Shown piece after piece: positions 12,318 through 22,327 of a DNA stretch of 64,000 nt. Under the pieces are notes generated by a model. The model worked only from the letters and a program-made list of their open reading frames with translations, searched no databases and was not told the origin of the DNA. Origin of the DNA: a virus; the IMG/VR virus record IMGVR_UViG_3300017706_001340, positions 23,770 through 87,769 of that record. One strand, written 5' to 3'. Numbering within the stretch: position 1 is the stretch's first letter; every line of letters begins with the position of its first letter. The translations under genes were made by a program, and so were the position numbers.

Positions 12318-14882
12318 ATGTACAGAAACGTTTGCTACAATCCTAGAGATGAAACAGTAACCCTATTTACTTGGGATGATAATGGAACACGTATCGCGGT
12401 CGATATGAGTTACAACCCGTACATCTATACAGAGACAACACTCAAAAGTGACGCTCAGAGTATATTCGAAACACCACTACGTAAGAAATTATTCAAAGAT
12501 ACGAGACATAGAAACAATTATATAAAGGAATGTGGAACCAACAGAGTTTTTGAGAACATCCGACCAGAACAACAGTTTCTGATAGATACATTCTGGAAGA
12601 AAAATGAGGAATTAGAATTCACACAACATCCACTCAAAATACATTATATAGATATTGAGGTTTATTGTCCGGATGTTTTTCCAACACCTGATGAAGCTGC
12701 ACAACCGATAAACATCATAACTGTGTATGATTCTATAGATAAGCGCTTCTACACTTGGGGTACCAGTCGATTGGAAAAGAATATTAAGGATTGTGATTAT
12801 GTGTTTTGTCAAACGGAGCAACAACTGCTGGAGTGTTATCTGAATTATGTGTGTAGATCACAACCAGATATTATATCCGGATGGAACAGTGAGGGTTTTG
12901 ATATACCTTATATTGTTAATCGATGTGTACGCATTTTAGGTGAGGATAGTATCAAGAAATTGAGTCCAGTGGAGAATATATACAGTAGAATGATGACTGG
13001 AGCCTTCGGTAAGGAACAGCAACGGTGGTATATAAGTGGTGTGTCGTGCGTTGATTACCTGGATATTTACAAGAAATTTAGTATTGGGTTGAGAGAAAGT
13101 TACAAGTTAGATGCAATAGCAGAACTAGAGTTAGGTTCCCGGAAGGTTGATTATGGTAACACAAATTTAAGCTCATTAGCTGATGAGGATTGGCAGACCT
13201 TTGTTGAGTATAACATACAGGATGTAAATCTACTTGTTGAGCTGGAGGATAAATTACGCTACCTTGAATTGCTTCGCATGTTAGCATATACAGGTTTAAC
13301 CACAATTGAAAGTGCCATGGGTACTTTGAGTGTGATAACCGGTGCCACTGTTATCAAGGCTCGGAGTAAGGACCTTGTTGTACCAACCTTCATAAAGGAC
13401 AATTCCAATGCAGCTAAGTATGAAGGAGCATATGTGGGTGAACCTCAACGTGGTTTTCAACATGCAGTTATAAGTTTTGATGCGAACAGCTTGTATCCTA
13501 ACACGATGATAAGTCTCAATTTAAGTCCAGAGACAAAAGTCGGTAGAATAACTCACAAGGATGACGAGTTTGTTTATCTTAAGCATGTCACCGGGAAGGA
13601 TTTTAAATTAACACATCAAGGATTTATGGATTTTGTGAGAAAGGAAGATATCGCCATATCCAAAGCTAAAATATTATTCACACAAAAGAAAAAAGGTATC
13701 ATGCCTGAGATCGTCGATGGTATCTATCAACAACGCGTTGAAGTGAAGAAGACACTCAAGAAACTGTTGATACAATTATCAAAAATGAGCTCAGAAGATC
13801 CGGATCGATCCGCCATACAGCGGCAGGCTGATCAATTAGACATAAAACAGTTCACATTAAAGATCTTGATCAATACTGTTTACGGTTATTTTGGTAACAA
13901 ACATGCTCCGATTGGTGATCCTGATATAGCACGTAGTATCACGTTGACAGGTCAAGCTGTTATCAAAAAATCTAACGATATCTTACGGGATTACGTTAAT
14001 ATTCACGGTTCACCTGGAGCTGACCCAGTTATATACAATGATACAGACAGTAGTTACATTTCTATTGATAGAATAATGGACAAGATAGGAGATGACTTTA
14101 GTACTGATGGTATTATTGCGAAATCTGCATATGAACAAGCACAATCAGTTGAGGATCACTTAAATGAAGAGATAACCAAATGGAGTGCCACTGCTTTGAA
14201 TAGTAAGGATAGTAGATTTGTGTTCAAGCGTGAATGTATGAGTGATGTCGGTGTGTTTCTACAGAAAAAACGCTACGTGCTACATGTTTTAGATGATGAG
14301 GGTATTCCTGTAAATAAATACAAGTATACAGGAGTAGAAGTTGTCAGGAGCACGATTCCTGCGCCTGTTAAACCGTATATCAAGAAGATAATCGAGACAA
14401 TGATGTCAACAGAGAGTAGATCAGAGACCAATGATGTATTTTTGAAAGCATATGACACATTCAAATCATTACCTATAGAGGATTATTCTTTTGTGATGGG
14501 TATATCAGATTATGATAAATATGCAACTCGATGTAACGGGTTTGTTACTGCAAAGGGCATGCCAGCACATGTAAAGGCTGCATATCACTACAATATGTTA
14601 CTAGAGAAGATAGGGTTATCAGGTTTATATGAAGCAATTGACACCGGTGATAAAGTTAGATACTTTTATGTAAATCAACCAAACAAGTACGGTATAAAAG
14701 CAGTCGCATACAAATATTATTATCCAGATGAATTCAAGAAGATATTTGAACCGGACAAAGAAAAGATGTTTGAAAAAATCATATACAGTATCATCGAGAG
14801 GTTCTATGAATCAGTGAAATGGAAGCTAAACAAACCGAGTGCACAGGTACAGACAGATTTATTCGATCTATTAGGCGTTTAA
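12318..14882 (+). CDS. gp43: Family B DNA polymerase gp43
   Basis: Exonuclease DIE, GWNSEGFD, YNIQD; polymerase FDANSLYP, KILINTVYG, YNDTDS, KKRY. Confidence 0.97.
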   Translation: MYRNVCYNPRDETVTLFTWDDNGTRIAVDMSYNPYIYTETTLKSDAQSIFETPLRKKLFKDTRHRNNYIKECGTNRVFENIRPEQQFLIDTFWKKNEELEFTQHPLKIHYIDIEVYCPDVFPTPDEAAQPINIITVYDSIDKRFYTWGTSRLEKNIKDCDYVFCQTEQQLLECYLNYVCRSQPDIISGWNSEGFDIPYIVNRCVRILGEDSIKKLSPVENIYSRMMTGAFGKEQQRWYISGVSCVDYLDIYKKFSIGLRESYKLDAIAELELGSRKVDYGNTNLSSLADEDWQTFVEYNIQDVNLLVELEDKLRYLELLRMLAYTGLTTIESAMGTLSVITGATVIKARSKDLVVPTFIKDNSNAAKYEGAYVGEPQRGFQHAVISFDANSLYPNTMISLNLSPETKVGRITHKDDEFVYLKHVTGKDFKLTHQGFMDFVRKEDIAISKAKILFTQKKKGIMPEIVDGIYQQRVEVKKTLKKLLIQLSKMSSEDPDRSAIQRQADQLDIKQFTLKILINTVYGYFGNKHAPIGDPDIARSITLTGQAVIKKSNDILRDYVNIHGSPGADPVIYNDTDSSYISIDRIMDKIGDDFSTDGIIAKSAYEQAQSVEDHLNEEITKWSATALNSKDSRFVFKRECMSDVGVFLQKKRYVLHVLDDEGIPVNKYKYTGVEVVRSTIPAPVKPYIKKIIETMMSTESRSETNDVFLKAYDTFKSLPIEDYSFVMGISDYDKYATRCNGFVTAKGMPAHVKAAYHYNMLLEKIGLSGLYEAIDTGDKVRYFYVNQPNKYGIKAVAYKYYYPDEFKKIFEPDKEKMFEKIIYSIIERFYESVKWKLNKPSAQVQTDLFDLLGV

Positions 14883-14920: not shown

Positions 14921-15301
14921 ATGGACAAAATAATAACATTCGTAGATAATGTAGGTCGTGTAATCGTCGGTCAAAAAGTAAAGTCTAAGGACACTAGTAT
15001 ATGGAGTATCAAAGAACCTGCAGTAGTTAACGTGCAAGTCAGTCAAGAGAACGGTCAAATTTCTGTTCAACTACTACCATTTGTATTCAGGGAGTTCATT
15101 TCAGCAGAAGCGCGAGAAGCGGGTGTTGTTTGGGACTTCAACAAGAATAACATAGTCACAAGTAATAACTTAGTACTTGATGATAACATTAAAACCCAAT
15201 ATGAAAACATATTCACAAAGCCAGTTGCTGTTGCACAGAAGCAACCAGCCCCGGCTCCGGTTGAACCAGAAGTTGTAAAGTTATTTGATGACGAAGATTG
15301 A
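14921..15301 (+). CDS. Hypothetical beta-rich protein (possibly Sm-like)
   Basis: 126-aa ORF between gp43 and uvsX; alternating hydrophobic strands. Confidence 0.65.
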   Translation: MDKIITFVDNVGRVIVGQKVKSKDTSIWSIKEPAVVNVQVSQENGQISVQLLPFVFREFISAEAREAGVVWDFNKNNIVTSNNLVLDDNIKTQYENIFTKPVAVAQKQPAPAPVEPEVVKLFDDED

Positions 15302-16373
15302 TAAAGATGTTCTCAAAGTTTTCGAAAAGCTCGAGAAACTAAATCCAGAAGCGAAATTTCTATCTGAAAGTGCACTAAGCACAGTAAGTGATTATGTTGA
15401 CACAGGATGTATGGTGTTGAATGCTATCATTTCCGGTAGTTTGTATGGAGGTGTACCTATGGGTCGTATCACAGGTTTCAGTGGACCTAGTGCCGCGGGA
15501 AAAACATACATTATAAACAAGATACTAGCTAATGGTCAGAAGAAGGGTATGATACCCGTGATATTTGATACTGAAGCTGCTGTTGATGCTAGTAGTACAG
15601 TAGGTGTGGGTTTAGATAACGAACAAGTCAAATATGTGCCTGTTCAGACAGTAGAGGATTGTAGGAATCAAATATCTGCTTTCTTGGACGGTGTGATCGA
15701 TACTAAGATGAGAGATAAATTCATCATCAGTATTGACAGTCTCGGGAACCTTGCAAGTCAAAAAGAGATTGATGATGCCGAGAAAGGCAAAACAGCAATG
15801 GACATGGGAACAAGAGCCAAAGGTCTCAAGAGTATGATGAGATTACTAACATTCAAAGCAGCTCAAGCTGGTGTCACTATATTATTTAGTAATCATACAT
15901 ATGATGACCCAAGCGCCATGTTCCCTACGCTCGTCAAGGCACAGAGTGGCGGTAAAGGTCCAGTGTATCTCGCAAGTGTACTTGTACAACTCGCTAAGCG
16001 TGATGAAAAGCATGATGCTAACAGAGGTGATTCGGATGAATTGCTACCAGAAGCCAATAAAGTTAGTGGAACAACATTACGTGCACTGACGGTCAAGAAT
16101 CGATTTGTACCGCCATTCCTAGAATGTGAGGCGTATCTAAACTTCCGTAAAGGTCTTGATAAATACAGCGGACTTAAGGAGATGGCTGTAAATCATGGAG
16201 TGATAATTCAGACTGGTAGTACATTCACCATGCCAGAATCAAAAGAAGGTGCACCTGGTAAAAAGTTAGGGTATTACAAGAACTGGAAGAGTGATGAATC
16301 ACTATGGGAAGAGTATATACTTCCGGAGTTAGAAAAAAAGCTCAAGGCGCAATATAGCTATAGTGTGGATTAA
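15288..16373 (+). CDS. uvsX: RecA-like recombinase UvsX
   Basis: GPSAAGKT, FDTE, IDSLG, NH, SGG, KNRF. Confidence 0.93.
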   Translation: MTKIDKDVLKVFEKLEKLNPEAKFLSESALSTVSDYVDTGCMVLNAIISGSLYGGVPMGRITGFSGPSAAGKTYIINKILANGQKKGMIPVIFDTEAAVDASSTVGVGLDNEQVKYVPVQTVEDCRNQISAFLDGVIDTKMRDKFIISIDSLGNLASQKEIDDAEKGKTAMDMGTRAKGLKSMMRLLTFKAAQAGVTILFSNHTYDDPSAMFPTLVKAQSGGKGPVYLASVLVQLAKRDEKHDANRGDSDELLPEANKVSGTTLRALTVKNRFVPPFLECEAYLNFRKGLDKYSGLKEMAVNHGVIIQTGSTFTMPESKEGAPGKKLGYYKNWKSDESLWEEYILPELEKKLKAQYSYSVD

Positions 16374-17902
16374 ATTGGTGTTTCAGCACTACTTAAATAC
16401 CGTCTAAAAGCTTGTTCATAGCCACGACTACCGGGTCTCATCTGCATTTTGTCGCGAGGTGATAAGGATTTCTCAAATTCATCTCTATGATACTCGTCCG
16501 CACCACTTCTCTGAAACATTGTCTCCTCTTGATCTGGGTTGTATGGTAACTCTTGTTCGGGTGGTGTTGCAGTAACTGTATCATCCGGAGTTTCTGGAGC
16601 GACTTCCGGAGGAGCGGTCACTGGCGCGGTAGTTGCGTTTGAATCTTGTGGTGGTACGCTTTGTGGATCAACCTCAGGGTTAGTGACAGCAGCTTCACCG
16701 CCACCCATCATTGCCTCGGCACCTCCAGCTAATGCCCCTGCTCCAGCGGCCATCGCACCGGTTTTACCAGCTTGGTTCAAGCCACCCATGACTCTGTCTC
16801 CGATTCCACCTTGTGTAGTTGCGGCACCCTTGACAAAACCAATCCCGGCACCGGCTATGCCAGTTTTTAATGCTGGTAATGCGATAGCTGCAGTTGCTGG
16901 GTTGGTCATCATCAAACCTAAGACACCAATAGCAACTGCGCCTGTTAAAATGCCTTTGTTATTTTTCAAAAAGCTCCATATTTTCCCTAATACACCTTGA
17001 CCTCCTTGAATAGCGTTCGGGTCAATTGGTGTAACATCTGCATCCGGTGTAGCTTGTGGTGGTCCACTCGTTGTTGGAACATCCGATGCAGGTGCTTCTG
17101 GTGCAGGTGCTTCTGGTGCAGGTGCTTCTGGTGCAGGTGCTTCTGGTGCAGGTGCTTCTGGTGCAGGTGTGGCTTGTGATTGTGTGGCCTGTGATTGTGC
17201 TTTTACAAAATTCTGAAACCTTTTGTTTATCTTGTATAGTTGTGGAAACACTTCTCCCTTGCTACCACCTGGAGCACTTTTAGCAAGCTGATCTATTTGC
17301 TTTGCTATTGTTTTATTCTCATTGATGGAATCTGACACTGGCATCCATGGACATTCGTCTGGCTGGTTCGCTTCACTAAAAAGTGTATTTATTGTGTTAG
17401 TATAGTATCTCTCTTGTATCACTTGTGAGTGTTGTGATGTAATCAAACCTGTATCAACAAGAGCTTCACAAATCATGTCATTCATTTGGAATTGATATGT
17501 ATATGCCTCTGCCGCAGTTCCGGCTTCCGTACCTGTTGGTGTTGATTGGATTTGTTGTTGTACACTCGGATCACCTTCAGTTTGAGCTAGTGCAGCAATC
17601 GCCTCTGGTCCCTGATCCACAGCACCTGCAACTTTTTGTGCTGCAGCCGGATCCTTCGCAAGTGCACCAACCAACATATCGATCACTGGTTTGAGTAGTT
17701 TCTGAGCCGCGAAATTTTTAACTTTACCAAATGCACCCTTGACACCATCCATCAATCCTTCGTTCATTAAAAATTGCTCTATATACTTGAGATCCGCTTC
17801 CAGTAAGTCCTCCATCTTATACTTGATTTTATGATCAACTCTGTTTTGAAGGCTCTCCCAGATCAGATCATTATCACTTGTATTGTATTTTTTTCTGTAC
17901 AT
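16370..17902 (-). CDS. Late Ala/Gly/Pro-rich protein with glycine-zipper-like hydrophobic segments
   Basis: ATAAATA (17914-17908) 5 nt before ATG 17902; GxxxG-rich helices; APEAP repeats. Confidence 0.7.
   Translation of the reverse strand: MYRKKYNTSDNDLIWESLQNRVDHKIKYKMEDLLEADLKYIEQFLMNEGLMDGVKGAFGKVKNFAAQKLLKPVIDMLVGALAKDPAAAQKVAGAVDQGPEAIAALAQTEGDPSVQQQIQSTPTGTEAGTAAEAYTYQFQMNDMICEALVDTGLITSQHSQVIQERYYTNTINTLFSEANQPDECPWMPVSDSINENKTIAKQIDQLAKSAPGGSKGEVFPQLYKINKRFQNFVKAQSQATQSQATPAPEAPAPEAPAPEAPAPEAPAPEAPASDVPTTSGPPQATPDADVTPIDPNAIQGGQGVLGKIWSFLKNNKGILTGAVAIGVLGLMMTNPATAAIALPALKTGIAGAGIGFVKGAATTQGGIGDRVMGGLNQAGKTGAMAAGAGALAGGAEAMMGGGEAAVTNPEVDPQSVPPQDSNATTAPVTAPPEVAPETPDDTVTATPPEQELPYNPDQEETMFQRSGADEYHRDEFEKSLSPRDKMQMRPGSRGYEQAFRRYLSSAETPI
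17087..17169. repeat. 15-bp perfect tandem repeat (TGCAGGTGCTTCTGG) x5.5 encoding (APEAP)n
   Basis: Directly visible; in frame in the minus-strand ORF. Confidence 0.95.
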
Positions 17903-17915
17903 ACATTTATTTATG

Positions 17916-17944
17916 TTGGACATTTCTATTTTATATAGTATAAT
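17916..17944 (+). promoter_or_regulatory. Sigma70-type promoter for the queC operon
   Basis: TTGGAC-17-TATAAT, back-to-back with a late promoter at 17914-17908. Confidence 0.6.
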
Positions 17945-17953
17945 ATGTGTTAT

Positions 17954-18667
17954 ATGGAAAAGTGTATTGTACCGATCAGTGGAGGTTTAGACTCAACAAC
18001 CATCTTATACATGGCCAAAGCAAGAAACATGCAAATACATGCAGTTAGTTTCAATTACGGTCAACGACACATGGACAGTGAATTAGCGTGTGCACAACAT
18101 CATGTGAATAAAGTGGGTGTGGAGAGTTGGAAAGTTCTAGATATCACCTTCTTCAAGGAAATTGCAAACACGAGCTCATTGACAAATAGCGATATAGATG
18201 TTGCTGATGCACGTGATGTTGTGGGTGATCCTCAGACAGTTAATTATGTCCCAAACCGCAACATGATGATGTTGAGTATATGTGCTGCATATGCTGAAAG
18301 TCTTCAAGCTGAAACTGTGTTTCACGGAGCTGCTCTTGTTGATAGCCAGGCTGGTTTCTGGGATGGTAGTGTAGAGTTCTTAGAGTATATAAACAATCTA
18401 CTGTCCTTGAATCGCCGAGATCGAGTCAAGGTGGAGTGTCCTTTGATTGAGCTATCTAAAGAGCAAATTATACACAAGGCTGTGTCACTTGGAGTTGATG
18501 TCTCTAAAACATGGACGTGTTACAGAGGTGGCGAACGACCATGTGGTTATTGTACGGCTTGTAGTTCTCGTATCGCTGGATTCATGTCTGCTGGCTATAT
18601 AGATCCATTGGATTATCAGAGAACAGACATACCATGGAGTGGTCAGCAACCAATATCAGCACTATAG
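17954..18667 (+). CDS. queC: QueC-family PP-loop ATPase (7-cyano-7-deazaguanine synthase-like)
   Basis: SGGLDS, FNYGQRH, VPNRN, TWTCY...PCGYCTAC; canonical YPDC replaced by FWDG. Confidence 0.88.
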   Translation: MEKCIVPISGGLDSTTILYMAKARNMQIHAVSFNYGQRHMDSELACAQHHVNKVGVESWKVLDITFFKEIANTSSLTNSDIDVADARDVVGDPQTVNYVPNRNMMMLSICAAYAESLQAETVFHGAALVDSQAGFWDGSVEFLEYINNLLSLNRRDRVKVECPLIELSKEQIIHKAVSLGVDVSKTWTCYRGGERPCGYCTACSSRIAGFMSAGYIDPLDYQRTDIPWSGQQPISAL

Positions 18668-18670
18668 TAT

Positions 18671-19396
18671 ATGTGTGGTATATTTGGTAGTTTCAACTTC
18701 CGGCGGTTCGAACAGCTGTACGAAGCAAACCGGAAGCGTGGTGACTTTGCGGTTGGTACGATGTATATAACTAAAAATGCATCCCCAGGTATGGCGAAAA
18801 ATACCTGGTTGAGAAAGAAGCAAGGTATAGTTGATCTCACTAGTCATTATTCTTTTAAGAATGATTACGATCAATACCTGGGTCACACACAAGCACCAAC
18901 AAGTATTAACCGTGAATTTAGTCCGGAGACAACACATCCATTTGATAGTATACATTATCAAGTAGCACATAACGGTGTACTGAGCAACCATAAGCAGCTT
19001 GGAGAGGATCTACTAGACGCGTGGTGGAGGGACGATTGTGTTGATAGTGAGATCATACCAGGATTATTATCCGTCAATGTTGAGTTTGATGAAGATATCA
19101 TATTGAGCTATCAAAATGATACCGGAAAAACTGAGGATGTGTTGACAGTTGAGAAAACATGCAGCATGCTGAAGGGTACATTTGGTTTGTGGGTGTACAG
19201 TAAACTAACAGGTGATACATTTATCGTTCGCAACGGTTGCACGTTATTTGGAAACATTGAATCTGGTGATTTTAGTAGTGTGCCTATCGCTGGTATTTGT
19301 GAAGAACCTCTGAAGGAAGGTGTAGTGTACTGCGTGACATGTGAAGGGTTAACAGAGTGTGGAGAGTTCGAATCAAGTAGTCCATTTTTTTTATGA
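18671..19396 (+). CDS. Class II (Ntn) glutamine amidotransferase
   Basis: N-terminal MCGIFG, RG, GHT, HPF, HNG, DSE. Confidence 0.88.
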   Translation: MCGIFGSFNFRRFEQLYEANRKRGDFAVGTMYITKNASPGMAKNTWLRKKQGIVDLTSHYSFKNDYDQYLGHTQAPTSINREFSPETTHPFDSIHYQVAHNGVLSNHKQLGEDLLDAWWRDDCVDSEIIPGLLSVNVEFDEDIILSYQNDTGKTEDVLTVEKTCSMLKGTFGLWVYSKLTGDTFIVRNGCTLFGNIESGDFSSVPIAGICEEPLKEGVVYCVTCEGLTECGEFESSSPFFL

Positions 19397-20076
19397 ATAA
19401 GAACAAGAAAATTTTAATTGTAACATGCTCGAAAGATGACGGTAAAAAGTCACAGCTAGTCCAATCACTAGATGCAATACGAGATGACATATCATTAATA
19501 ATAAACGCAAACAACAAGGCAGGATTGTCAGAAACTTACAACAGACAGCTAAAGCCGGAAAATCTCATAAAGCATGACATTGTGTTATTTGTACATGATG
19601 ATGTGTTCATTGATGATGTCAAGCTAAGAGGTAAATTGTATGTAGCGATGGAGTCATTAAAGTATGATATTGTAGGTCTAGCTGGTGCTAGTAAGATGAA
19701 GATAGGAAACCCGGCGTTATGGCATCAAATGTCGCCCCGGGAATCATGGAGCGGTGCCGTGTCACACCCTGTAGGTGATAAGCAATTGAATATAACTAGT
19801 TTCGGACCATGGCCAGCAAGATGTTTAGTATTGGACGGATTGTTTCTTGCAGTCAACTTGGCGAGAGTATTGGAGATTGGATGGAGATTTAACGAAGATT
19901 ATAAATATCATCATTATGATATAGCTAGTTGTTTAGATGCGAACAAAGTTAAGCTCAAGATGGGAACATATCCAATCAATGTGACTCACAGCAGCCCCGG
20001 ACTGAGAGACATCAACGACGAATCATTCCAAAGATCACAACAAACATTTATACGTAATTATTCAGATGTCAGTTAA
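19393..20076 (+). CDS. GT-A glycosyltransferase-like protein (GT2-related)
   Basis: YN...FVHDDV, IVGLAG, LDGLFLA, HHYD..SCL. Confidence 0.75.
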   Translation: MNKNKKILIVTCSKDDGKKSQLVQSLDAIRDDISLIINANNKAGLSETYNRQLKPENLIKHDIVLFVHDDVFIDDVKLRGKLYVAMESLKYDIVGLAGASKMKIGNPALWHQMSPRESWSGAVSHPVGDKQLNITSFGPWPARCLVLDGLFLAVNLARVLEIGWRFNEDYKYHHYDIASCLDANKVKLKMGTYPINVTHSSPGLRDINDESFQRSQQTFIRNYSDVS

Positions 20077-21394
20077 TCAATTAGATAGTGAGTTCTATGA
20101 AACGATCATCGCATACAACATGTTGTTGGATGAACCATATCTCGCGAGTATAATTGACCATCTTGATGAAAGATTCTTCGAGAATAAAAATATAGCTAAT
20201 ATTGTTAAGATAATAACAGAGTTTTATAATCGCAGAAGTGTTGCTCCGACACTGACTGAGATCAAGAGCTATCTTATCGATGATAAACTCAAGATGAGTT
20301 TCAAATCTGTTGTTAGTATGTTTGATGAGATTGATAAGAACTTTAATAAGACTGAATTGTATGAAAACACAGAGAAATTTTTAAAAGAAAAGTCTGTGTA
20401 CCATACACTATTAGAGGTCGCAGATCAAACAGGTGATGAGATGAACACTGGTGAGATACTACATAAATTTGAGAAAGCTTGTAGTGTGACATTAGCCGCT
20501 GATTTAGGTTTAGATTATATTGATGAGATAGATAGACACATAAACGACTTGAAGACGATCGATAGTACAATCTCATGCGGATGGCCGTGGTTGGATAGAA
20601 AAATGGATGGTGGTTTCTTGGAACAAGGTCGAGCAATATATGTTTTCGCTGGTGAGACAAATATCGGTAAGAGTATATTTCTTGGTAACATCGCGAAAAA
20701 TATTGCCGATCAAGGGAAAACAGTACTGTTGATAAGCTTGGAGATGAGTGAGCTGGTTTACGCTAAAAGAATTACTACTAATTTGACACAGATACCAATA
20801 AGAGATTTACACTCCCGTACAGATGATATCGAGTCAGCGGTAAAACAATACAAACAACGTAACAGTAAATCCAAAGTCATCGTAAAGGAGTTTCCTCCGA
20901 GTACAGTAACATGCAAGCATCTCAAGGGATATATAAAAAAATTAACTGACCGAGGTGTGAAGTTAGATGCTATTGTGGTAGATTACGTAAATTTACTTAA
21001 AAGTGACCTAGGTACAAACAGCTATGAGCGGATAAAATATGCTACTGAAGAACTGCGAGCTTTAAGTTATGTGTTTGAGTGTCCCGTCATAACAGCAACA
21101 CAATTGAATCGCTCTGGTTATAGTGAGGTCAATCCAGGGTTGGATACCGTTGGAGAGAGTTATGGTTTAGCAGCAACAGCAGATGCAATCTTTAGTATAT
21201 GGAGAGAGGAAGAAGATATTGAAGCTGGTGTACTAAAATTAGGAGTCATGAAGAATAGATTTGGTGAGAATTACGGTAGTGTCATAATGGAGATTGATTA
21301 CGATACATTGACACTAAAGGAAGCTAGTGAACAGGTACAAAATATCGACATGACAGACACGATAAACAGCCTGGATCTACTCAATAACAGTTGA
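20066..21394 (+). CDS. gp41: Replicative DnaB-like helicase gp41
   Basis: GETNIGKS, SLEM, VVDY, ATQLNR, KNRFG. Confidence 0.95.
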   Translation: MSVNQLDSEFYETIIAYNMLLDEPYLASIIDHLDERFFENKNIANIVKIITEFYNRRSVAPTLTEIKSYLIDDKLKMSFKSVVSMFDEIDKNFNKTELYENTEKFLKEKSVYHTLLEVADQTGDEMNTGEILHKFEKACSVTLAADLGLDYIDEIDRHINDLKTIDSTISCGWPWLDRKMDGGFLEQGRAIYVFAGETNIGKSIFLGNIAKNIADQGKTVLLISLEMSELVYAKRITTNLTQIPIRDLHSRTDDIESAVKQYKQRNSKSKVIVKEFPPSTVTCKHLKGYIKKLTDRGVKLDAIVVDYVNLLKSDLGTNSYERIKYATEELRALSYVFECPVITATQLNRSGYSEVNPGLDTVGESYGLAATADAIFSIWREEEDIEAGVLKLGVMKNRFGENYGSVIMEIDYDTLTLKEASEQVQNIDMTDTINSLDLLNNS

Positions 21395-21427
21395 TTGTTT
21401 TTTTACTGTTAATAAATAAATTAAATA

Positions 21428-22327
21428 GTGAAAAAGATAGCTGTATTTACTGATTGCGACCTGGATGGACTTAGCTGTATGTCTGTTTTCCGATGGTTTA
21501 CAAACACAAAGATGGATCACCAGATATGTTCTCAATCCAACTTCAGAAAAACATTTACCCGATGGTGTCAGAGAAATCGACCAGAGACGTTTGATAAGAT
21601 TTACATCTTTGATCTTGATGTGTCACAATCTAATATTGACCTTGTTGATCATCATAATTTCACTATAATAGATCACCATGACACACATGTGGCTAACAAG
21701 GATAAGTATAAAAATGCAAGTGTGATATTGAAGGACTATAGTAGTTGTTGTAAGCTGATATATCACCTCATGGTCAAGAAGTATCCAGATAAAGTTTTAG
21801 ATGATACTCAACGATTATTAGTTCTACTAGCAGATGATTATGATAGTTATGAGTTGAAATTAAAAGACTCGTATAGTCTGAATGTGATTGTGTGGAATTA
21901 TGTTGGAGATAGAGCAGAACAATTTCAACGAGATTTTGGTGACGGATTCAAGGGATTTAACGAATCACACTTGAACATGATACACTTGAACAACAAACAG
22001 GTCAATCGCATATTGTCGGAGCTTGAGATATACAGTGGAGAGATACCTATAAATGGTAGAATGTATAAAATATATGCCACGATGGCAGACAAGAGTCTGA
22101 ACGAGGTAGCACACCATGTAATCAACAGCTATGATTGTGAGATTTGTTTGGTGATGAATTTGAGAACAAAAAGGGTTAGCTTCAGAAAGAATAAAGAAAA
22201 AATTCCAGACCTGGATTTAGGTAAGCTGGCTCAAAACATTGCAGAAGGTGGAGGTCATGTACATTCATCCGGAGGGCAAATAACAGATAATATTTTAACA
22301 GTAACAAAAATGTTACAACCAGTATAA
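21428..22327 (+). CDS. DHH/DHHA1 phosphoesterase
   Basis: DCDLDG, FDL, IDHH, DDYD, GGGH; GTG start. Confidence 0.88.
   Translation: MKKIAVFTDCDLDGLSCMSVFRWFTNTKMDHQICSQSNFRKTFTRWCQRNRPETFDKIYIFDLDVSQSNIDLVDHHNFTIIDHHDTHVANKDKYKNASVILKDYSSCCKLIYHLMVKKYPDKVLDDTQRLLVLLADDYDSYELKLKDSYSLNVIVWNYVGDRAEQFQRDFGDGFKGFNESHLNMIHLNNKQVNRILSELEIYSGEIPINGRMYKIYATMADKSLNEVAHHVINSYDCEICLVMNLRTKRVSFRKNKEKIPDLDLGKLAQNIAEGGGHVHSSGGQITDNILTVTKMLQPV

Follow-up and report, generated by a model that had tools for sequence, protein, structure and literature searches.

Modification of DNA with 7-deazaguanines is a main route by which phages get around restriction, and it is known so far almost only from cultured phages. 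In Enterobacteria phage 9g, a Gat-QueC protein together with DpdA yields 2'-deoxyarchaeosine (dG+; PMC6884629). The described genomes closest to the QueC-Gat gene pair reported here are those of the Vibrio phages nt-1, phi-Grn1, the KVP40 group and 2.275.O. The DNA of nt-1 contains dPreQ0, dADG and dG+, the first two being the deoxynucleosides of 7-cyano-7-deazaguanine (preQ0) and 7-amido-7-deazaguanine (ADG) (PMC6884629); that of phi-Grn1 contains dPreQ1, from 7-aminomethyl-7-deazaguanine (preQ1), and its methylated form mdPreQ1, and no dG+ (PMC10516641, Table 1). Here, we analysed a stretch of 64,000 nucleotides (hereafter the window), which makes up bases 23770-87769 of the 87.8-kb IMG/VR record IMGVR_UViG_3300017706_001340 (labelled G000), a record of 41% completeness according to CheckV. 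The open reading frames (ORFs) of the window are T4-like replication and structural genes, and a cassette of three genes among them encodes QueC, a stand-alone glutamine amidotransferase subunit (Gat) and a glycosyltransferase (GT). In our judgement, this cassette is rather likely to be the local arm of a dispersed DpdA3-type system of 7-deazaguanine DNA modification, a system of known kind that is shared by a large clade of uncultured marine T4-like phages. The split QueC-Gat pair itself is a new form of a known module within a known kind of system.

The three genes follow one another on the + strand: queC at 17945-18667, gat at 18671-19396 and the GT gene at 19393-20076. They are tightly coupled, as the initial annotation had described: queC and gat are separated by a 3-nucleotide (3-nt) spacer, gat and the GT gene overlap in an ATGA, and the GT gene runs 11 nt beyond the start (20066) of the gene for the gp41 helicase. 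QueC (240 aa) reaches 178.5 bits with TIGR00364 over its full length (equivalog cut-off 150.3) and 193.4 bits with PF06508, of which it covers profile positions 1-209 of 210; it also matches Asn_synthase (PF00733). The PP-loop motif SGGLDS is kept at residues 11-16, and the four C-terminal zinc-binding cysteines (TCY...PCGYCTAC) align with those of the solved QueC proteins 2pg3 and 3bl5. The same alignment bears out an altered loop, as SGYPDCRDEF of the two structures falls on AGFWDGSVEF, the canonical GYPDCR thus reading GFWDGS. This loop had been taken as a sign of new chemistry, a view that does not survive comparison with relatives. Indeed, G[YF]WDGS is found in all of the approximately 40 clade members, and the Vibrio phages have related loops (GYWDCT in nt-1 and phi-Grn1, GYWDTS in 2.275.O), including nt-1 and phi-Grn1, whose DNA carries known bases only. 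The G[YF]WD loop thus gives no evidence for a new substrate: judged from the aligned sequences, it is the trait of a QueC subfamily, compatible with preQ0 synthesis in phi-Grn1. It would mark a subfamily of QueC proteins that depend on Gat, and is possibly their docking or ammonia-entry surface.

The rest of the preQ0 pathway lies close by. The initial annotation had found no folE, queD or queE, which is true of the window: the Pfam models for TGT, FolE, PTPS and radical-SAM proteins have no match within its 64 kb. However, all three functions are encoded in the same record, 0.8-5.3 kb before window base 1. FolE2, a type IB GTP cyclohydrolase, occupies G000:21889-22929 (L229:9889-10929; + strand; PF02649, 243 bits), that is, 0.8-1.9 kb before the window; it takes the place of the type IA FolE found in G001, a complete relative, and is thus a non-orthologous replacement within the pathway. 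QueD is encoded at G000:19232-19840 (PF01242, 56 bits) and QueE at G000:18450-19244 (phrog_2076, E 1e-42), and the only PDB matches of a profile built from three sequences, this QueE and two relatives, are QueE structures (5tgs, 6nhl, 4njg). Two Pfam models find nothing in the record, PF01227 (FolE type IA) because the cyclohydrolase is of type IB, and the radical-SAM model PF04055 because it does not reach so divergent a QueE. With FolE2, QueD, QueE and QueC, the record holds a full pathway from GTP to preQ0. An ordinary preQ0 pathway encoded elsewhere, which had been named as an outcome speaking against a novel base modification, is therefore largely in place, FolE2, QueD and QueE being in the record itself and complete relatives adding a DpdA3-like protein, QueF and a formyltransferase.

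Gat (241 aa) belongs to the class II, or N-terminal nucleophile (Ntn), glutamine amidotransferases, and its N-terminus reads MCGIFG. Curated models recognize it poorly (22.3 bits with GATase_6, against a cut-off of 27; GlmS and PurF models far under their cut-offs); its sequence is that of a divergent stand-alone domain. A profile of 18 Gat sequences matches the GlmS glutaminase domain 1xff (E 6e-13), PurF and the asparagine synthetase AsnB. The AlphaFold2 (AF2) model (predicted local distance difference test score, pLDDT, 88.7) is superposed by Foldseek on 1xff with a template modelling (TM) score of 0.72, PurF being matched too. Across the 18 sequences, the nucleophile C2 as well as R23, G24, H72, R81, N101, G102 and D125 are invariant. 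By fold, profile and catalytic residues, Gat is thus an intact Ntn glutaminase. A hidden Markov model (HMM) of the family matches the N-domain of the 9g Gat-QueC (residues 23-180, 26.8 bits) and detects the genes directly 3' of queC in nt-1, 2.275.O and phi-Grn1. The stand-alone homologues of nt-1 (ORF392 / YP_008125324; L097:9723-10331) and phi-Grn1 (phiGrn1_0237; L233:5714-6322) are not annotated, and the 2019 survey, in its supplementary pathway table, does not list the nt-1 gene in the row for that phage; the homologue of 2.275.O carries the annotation 'nucleophile aminohydrolase'. By tblastn of Gat against cultured phages, the sole match was a weak one in 2.275.O, and a close-relative scan with Gat alone returned no loci.

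The gene order QueD-FolE-DpdA2-QueF-QueC-Gat of phi-Grn1 suggests what such a subunit may do. Since phi-Grn1 DNA carries dPreQ1 and mdPreQ1 and no dG+, the QueC-Gat pair would make preQ0 there, and on the simplest reading the preQ0 synthase is split and dependent on glutamine, with Gat as its glutaminase subunit. By analogy, Gat most likely supplies ammonia to QueC in the manner of AsnB and need not mark archaeosine. The assignment of the split pair to 7-deazaguanine metabolism, already made in the initial annotation, is upheld. In the literature searched, a free-standing glutaminase subunit of QueC is not named as a component, homologues being present in nt-1, phi-Grn1 and 2.275.O without being called a glutaminase, and we found no report since 2024 of an amidotransferase occurring with DpdA.

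The clade was surveyed in IMG/VR, which contains 73 loci encoding a homologue of the GT and over 540 gp41 relatives. Among the 51 informative loci (non-redundant, with GT-gp41 present and at least 3.5 kb upstream), QueC and Gat both lie upstream of GT-gp41 in 49; the exceptions are L070, which has QueC, QueD and QueE and no Gat, and L174, which has Gat on a contig ending 3.6 kb upstream. QueC and Gat are separate ORFs in all relatives examined, and the pair is kept across the clade as well as in cultured Vibrio phages whose DNA is known to contain deazaguanines. Five public contigs of 160-238 kb (P0045, 238 kb; P0022, 195 kb; P0063, 194 kb; P0067; P0080) encode GTs 66-71% identical to that of the window. 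From cultured phages the clade is remote: the window's DNA polymerase shares no more than about 31% identity with any of theirs, and the DNA of positions 17000-21500 has no match among 50,697 cultured phage records. With the gp41 of the deep lineage L070 as query, only L070 itself was found. The stretch was found again in marine and seawater metagenome runs of several studies.

Complete relatives show what the window's record may be missing. G001 (200.8 kb, 100% complete, with terminal repeats) encodes FolE, QueD and QueE, has QueC followed by an IMPDH/GuaC-family gene, Gat, GT and gp41, and carries at a distance an operon of a DpdA3-like gene, a formyltransferase gene, orf116, a kinase gene and a bimodular QueF gene. 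The DpdA3-like family aligns with the DpdA3 of Cellulophaga phage phiST over 238 columns (hhalign probability 98.4%, E 9e-15). Its gene is present in all three relatives of at least 88% completeness (G001, 100%; G002, 88%; G006, 91%), and also in G004, G007, G014 and one further contig, and in relatives it is adjoined by QueF. A quick IQ-TREE tree of gp41 places lineages with DpdA3 on either side of the window's subclade, which is nested between them. Other DpdA types were not recognized in G001, which has no match to Pfam TGT, to an HMM of five DpdA2 proteins or to DUF6610/DpdA4; a phmmer search with the DpdA2 of nt-1 was negative as well. We found nothing in the literature on DpdA3 in marine metagenomes, nor on queuosine genes of pelagimyophages.

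In the explanation we favour, Gat would dock on QueC and hydrolyse glutamine with its N-terminal cysteine, and the ammonia would pass from Gat to the PP-loop site of QueC. There, 7-carboxy-7-deazaguanine (CDG) would be adenylated, amidated to ADG and then dehydrated to preQ0. A DpdA3-like transglycosylase, probably together with QueF, would be encoded in the unsequenced 59% of the genome and would insert the base into DNA after replication. By analogy, the split pair may be seen as a two-gene version of the AsnB or Gat-QueC architecture, useful where free ammonium is scarce. Several points weigh against this explanation. The search of the record beyond the window retrieved FolE2, QueD and QueE and no DpdA, Pfam TGT, the DpdA2 HMM, DUF6610 and the DpdA3-like profile all missing in the 87.8 kb, of 41% completeness. 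Moreover, the block syntenic to 0-19 kb of G001, which holds DpdA3 and QueF, is missing at the corresponding place in the record, and neither QueF nor the formyltransferase was seen in it, so that the final base may be preQ0, ADG, G+ or a derivative of preQ1. Within the window's own subclade, no genome exceeds 41% completeness, and a DpdA3-like gene in the window's genome is suggested by phylogenetic bracketing only. Likewise, the physical coupling of Gat with QueC is proposed from gene order and analogy.

The lack of a DpdA in the record, and of the syntenic DpdA3 block, would also suit a pathway that does not serve phage DNA here and raises, as a set of auxiliary metabolic genes, the supply of preQ0/preQ1 for queuosine in host tRNA. 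We consider this quite improbable: all relatives of at least 88% completeness have a DpdA3-like gene, DpdA3-positive lineages flank the subclade in the gp41 tree, the genes belong to the replication module and seem to be expressed with it, and viruses encoding these synthesis genes are all said to encode a DpdA (PMC10516641). Somewhat better placed, and still rather unlikely, is the idea that Gat and QueC go beyond preQ0 to the amidine, so that the DNA would carry dG+. Gat is homologous to the Gat domain of 9g, whose Gat-QueC with DpdA gives dG+ (PMC6884629), the record has no visible QueF, and nt-1, with the split pair, has some dG+ (PMC6884629). However, the dG+ of nt-1 is attributed to an ArcS homologue that this phage encodes (PMC6884629), phi-Grn1 has the same split pair in a genome devoid of dG+ (PMC10516641), and complete relatives carry QueF, which requires preQ0; the record being 41% complete, the absence of QueF from it means little. 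The preQ0 synthase itself might be questioned on the ground of weak local matches at the zinc-ribbon end of QueC, to Cap9 (9nto, 33 bits) and to the QatC model (17.5 bits), which could point to a protein-modifying PP-loop enzyme like the QatC/Cap9 proteins of defence systems. The QatC match, however, covers only about 55 residues (174-229) and falls against a cut-off of 280 bits, the full-length score exceeds the QueC equivalog cut-off, FolE2, QueD and QueE are co-encoded and the adjoining genes are those of the replisome, which makes this reading extremely improbable.

The third gene of the cassette encodes a protein of 227 aa that scores 31.2 bits with PF13712 (Glyco_tranf_2_5; cut-off 27). 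Its AF2 model (pLDDT 93.6) has as best PDB match the UDP-binding protein majastridin (2qgi/2nxv, TM 0.73). The motif FVHDDVFI, which contains the DxD signature, is invariant, and H68, D69 and D70 are, with others, constant in 26 GT sequences. On sequence and model together, the protein is a genuine GT-A transferase using nucleoside diphosphate (NDP)-sugars, this activity being predicted. From the position of its gene, it is expected to be expressed together with the replisome. Its neighbours in the protein atlas are multi-GT phage proteins, no cultured phage matched the GT by tblastn, and we found no paper linking a glycosyltransferase to 7-deazaguanine. The GT is a strikingly constant neighbour of QueC-Gat; its conservation beside the pair in 49 of the 51 informative loci means that the earlier proposal of a linked, base-modifying GT does not fall for want of conservation in relatives. 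Glucosylation of a hydroxymethyl-pyrimidine, as a role for the GT, was rejected, no ThyA-family gene being found in any relative.

The proposal itself was that the GT adds a sugar to a 7-deazaguanine, as free base, nucleotide or DNA, to give a sugar-decorated deazapurine not yet described, and the evidence makes this an unlikely, though not a negligible, reading. Besides the constancy of the neighbourhood, in which the exceptions L070 and L174 still keep deazaguanine genes, it can appeal to L147, a locus with approximately 1.7 kb upstream and not among the 51, where the order is UvsX-FolE-GT-gp41. The start of the GT gene overlaps or abuts the preceding gene, whichever gene that is, which is consistent with translational coupling; the island inserts are enzymes that tailor bases or nucleotides (IMPDH/GuaC, GNAT, dGTP_diPhyd_N, formyltransferase), and in one subclade a cytidylyltransferase-containing protein stands directly before the GT. 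Furthermore, the GT and the pathway share a coarse distribution, occurring throughout the clade whereas cultured phages have no GT match, and the lack of any ThyA-family enzyme excludes a competing hydroxymethyl-pyrimidine route and leaves deazaguanine as the sole non-canonical base route in view. Against this stand the paralogues of the GT (approx. 46% identical to the G001 GT, approx. 40% to that of the window), which reside in sugar islands. Three such islands (L038, L039, L067) comprise GT1, galactosyltransferase, NTP-transferase, PfkB kinase and sulfotransferase genes by a baseplate gene, a further paralogue (L069) heads a multi-GT island after topoisomerase II, and no deazaguanine gene was found around the paralogues within at most 10 kb per side. 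Bacterial homologues are TPR-fused and flanked by TPR-GT41 proteins, or follow nuo genes, none of them lying near queC, and the nearest solved fold, majastridin, is itself without an established acceptor. Finally, the known deazaguanine side chains have no hydroxyl, and the preQ1 amine would already be capped in relatives with a formyl- or acetyl-transferase. It is therefore doubtful that the GT acts on deazaguanine or DNA, its acceptor otherwise being protein or glycan. Equally unlikely is the more specific case in which the GT would be the last enzyme of the island and use an NDP-sugar to glycosylate the 7-substituent (the preQ1 amine, or the amide or amidine nitrogen of ADG or G+) in DNA or at the nucleotide level.

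Elsewhere in the record, a run of approximately 10 sugar-related genes on the - strand (G000:9129-16500), at 1-2 kb from QueE and QueD, includes a NeuA-like cytidylyltransferase, an aldolase-like protein, a nucleotidyltransferase and several GTs. This run could serve the GT as a donor or partner pathway; alternatively, it could be a glycan system with no relation to it. A thymidylate-kinase/deoxynucleoside-kinase-like P-loop protein (G000:17712-18416, L229:5712-6416, - strand; AAA_28, dNK, phrog_2107) adjoins QueE; it is kept beside QueE across the clade, including G001 and L070, and G001 has a second copy in its DpdA3-QueF operon. The gene suggests a step at the nucleotide level, which the model of a post-replicative DpdA does not explain. 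A DUF366 protein (G000:8219-8791, L228:8207-8791, - strand; PF04017, 80 bits) is also encoded in G001, G002, G006, G007 and G022. For the terminal ORF of 588 aa at the 5' end of the record, no relatives were found. Palindrome counts over the whole record show CCGG in excess (237 observed versus 135 expected, a ratio of 1.75 under a second-order Markov model) and none of the 4-base palindromes clearly avoided (lowest ratio 0.78), which is weak evidence for DNA shielded from type II restriction.

The cassette is set between the recombination and helicase genes. The DNA polymerase gene (12318-14882) and the UvsX recombinase gene (15285-16373, + strand) precede it, and between uvsX and queC an opposite-strand gene (16370-17923, -) encodes a low-complexity protein of 517 aa with PEAPA repeats and Ala/Gly-rich stretches; reverse-strand genes for acidic or low-complexity, unrelated-looking proteins occur in the same island in L016, L054, L061 and L018. 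On the other side lie the gene for the gp41-type DnaB-like replicative helicase (20066-21394, + strand; PF03796, 94 bits) and, directly 3' of it, that for a DHH/DHHA1 phosphoesterase (21428-22327, + strand; PF01368, phrog_4771), a position kept in most of the clade. A sigma70-type promoter had been assigned to the cassette. The match TGGACA-16-TATAAT (17917-17944, + strand), directly 5' of queC, is indeed the best such site between 16200 and 21600, with 11 of 12 consensus positions, and ends one base before the first queC ATG. The region as a whole, however, has 20 promoter-like sites against 16.6 in shuffled sequences, a total not raised, and the promoter stands as a consensus match only. The second ATG (17954) is probably the true start, since queC of relatives begins there. 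From the position of the putative promoter, the queC message would probably be leaderless or nearly so.

Read support consists of Illumina-derived contigs only, and no RNA run is among the sequencing runs listed for the stretch. Contigs of two runs, from a different marine study, cover the cassette in pieces that each show 0-1 differences, and in one of these runs (X2) they span every gene junction. The cassette is therefore no artefact of assembly.

The interval between uvsX and gp41 is a slot for deazaguanine genes in several T4-like lineages. Stenotrophomonas phage Moby has the order pol-UvsX-FolE-QueC-DpdA2-QueE-gp41, and Xanthomonas phage BUDD is similar. In the present clade, the interval is a variable island whose inserts differ by subclade and comprise a GuaC-family gene, GNAT, a dGTP_diPhyd_N diphosphohydrolase, a formyltransferase and the cytidylyltransferase-containing protein. 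An IMPDH/GMP-reductase-family gene (PF00478, 206 bits) lies between QueC and Gat in about 30 related loci of one large subclade (L048:8279-9232, corresponding to G001:147882-148862). The biosynthesis of toyocamycin involves a GMP-reductase homologue, and by this analogy the insert hints at chemistry on a deazapurine nucleotide. In the subclade of G002 (L054:8117-10005 and 10 or more related loci), GNAT, dGTP_diPhyd_N (PF18909, 71 bits) and a protein of 364 aa stand between Gat and GT, the last, with a cytidylyltransferase domain in its N-terminal part and a C-terminal half without assignment, directly before the GT. Formyltransferases of one family (PF00551) are encoded between Gat and GT at L018:4673-5215 and beside the DpdA3-like gene at G001:12233-12817 (- strand), and this occurrence of the same family at both places ties the Gat-GT and DpdA3 loci functionally. 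In L070 (L070:2-3606), an ORF of 356 aa splits the DNA polymerase gene; its match is weak and of restriction-endonuclease type, and it is probably an insertion of the homing-endonuclease or intein kind.

If the favoured explanation is right, as we think probable, the modification exists in a DpdA3-type version in a marine T4-like clade that is deep, recurrent and uncultured. The proposed role of Gat, if true, would explain preQ0 synthesis under scarce ammonium. Should the GT act on the base, which the evidence does not favour, an abundant marine T4-like clade would contain glycosylated 7-deazaguanine, a class of DNA base not yet described.

Comparison with known systems places the locus as follows. 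With the Gat-QueC of phage 9g (gp06) and of Crenarchaeota, it shares a class II glutaminase and a PP-loop QueC module, the clade QueC HMM matching residues 252-469 of the 9g protein at 114 bits, and like that of 9g it would be part of a phage 7-deazaguanine DNA modification. Unlike the 9g fusion, there are two genes here, with a stop codon and 3 nt between them; the loops differ (GFWDGS here, GAYPDN in 9g, GYPDCR in bacterial QueC), and 9g has DpdA1 and dG+ whereas complete members of this clade have a DpdA3-like gene and QueF. The T4-like Vibrio phages (nt-1, phi-Grn1, the KVP40 group and 2.275.O) share with the clade a Gat homologue directly after a GYWD-loop QueC and a full preQ0 pathway, but use DpdA2, have no GT homologue, and their QueC is 34-38% identical. 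Complete relatives carry the gene set for the formylated preQ1 deoxynucleoside (fdPreQ1), namely DpdA3-like, formyltransferase, QueF, FolE, QueD, QueE and QueC, of which DpdA3, QueF and the formyltransferase were not seen in the window's record. In contrast to the fdPreQ1 systems described so far, the genes of the clade are spread over three loci, and a stand-alone Gat, the GT, DUF366 and the thymidylate-kinase-like protein, with a GuaC-family protein or GNAT in some members, come in addition. The proposed chemistry resembles that of asparagine synthetase B, in which ammonia released from glutamine is channelled to a carboxylate, activated by adenylation, and an amide results; AsnB, however, is one polypeptide acting on aspartate, whereas two polypeptides would here act on CDG, with a second, ATP-dependent dehydration to the nitrile. 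As to the GT, majastridin, from the ATPase operon of Rhodobacter blasticus, likewise consists of one compact domain of GT-A fold and has a DxD motif; it is 20% identical to the GT, but is cellular and has no link to nucleic acids. The alpha- and beta-glucosyltransferases of T4, whose genes lie near uvsX on the T4 map, would be its functional analogues if a sugar were added to the base; they have, however, a GT-B fold and act on hydroxymethylcytosine, whereas the present clade is without a ThyA-family hydroxymethylase.

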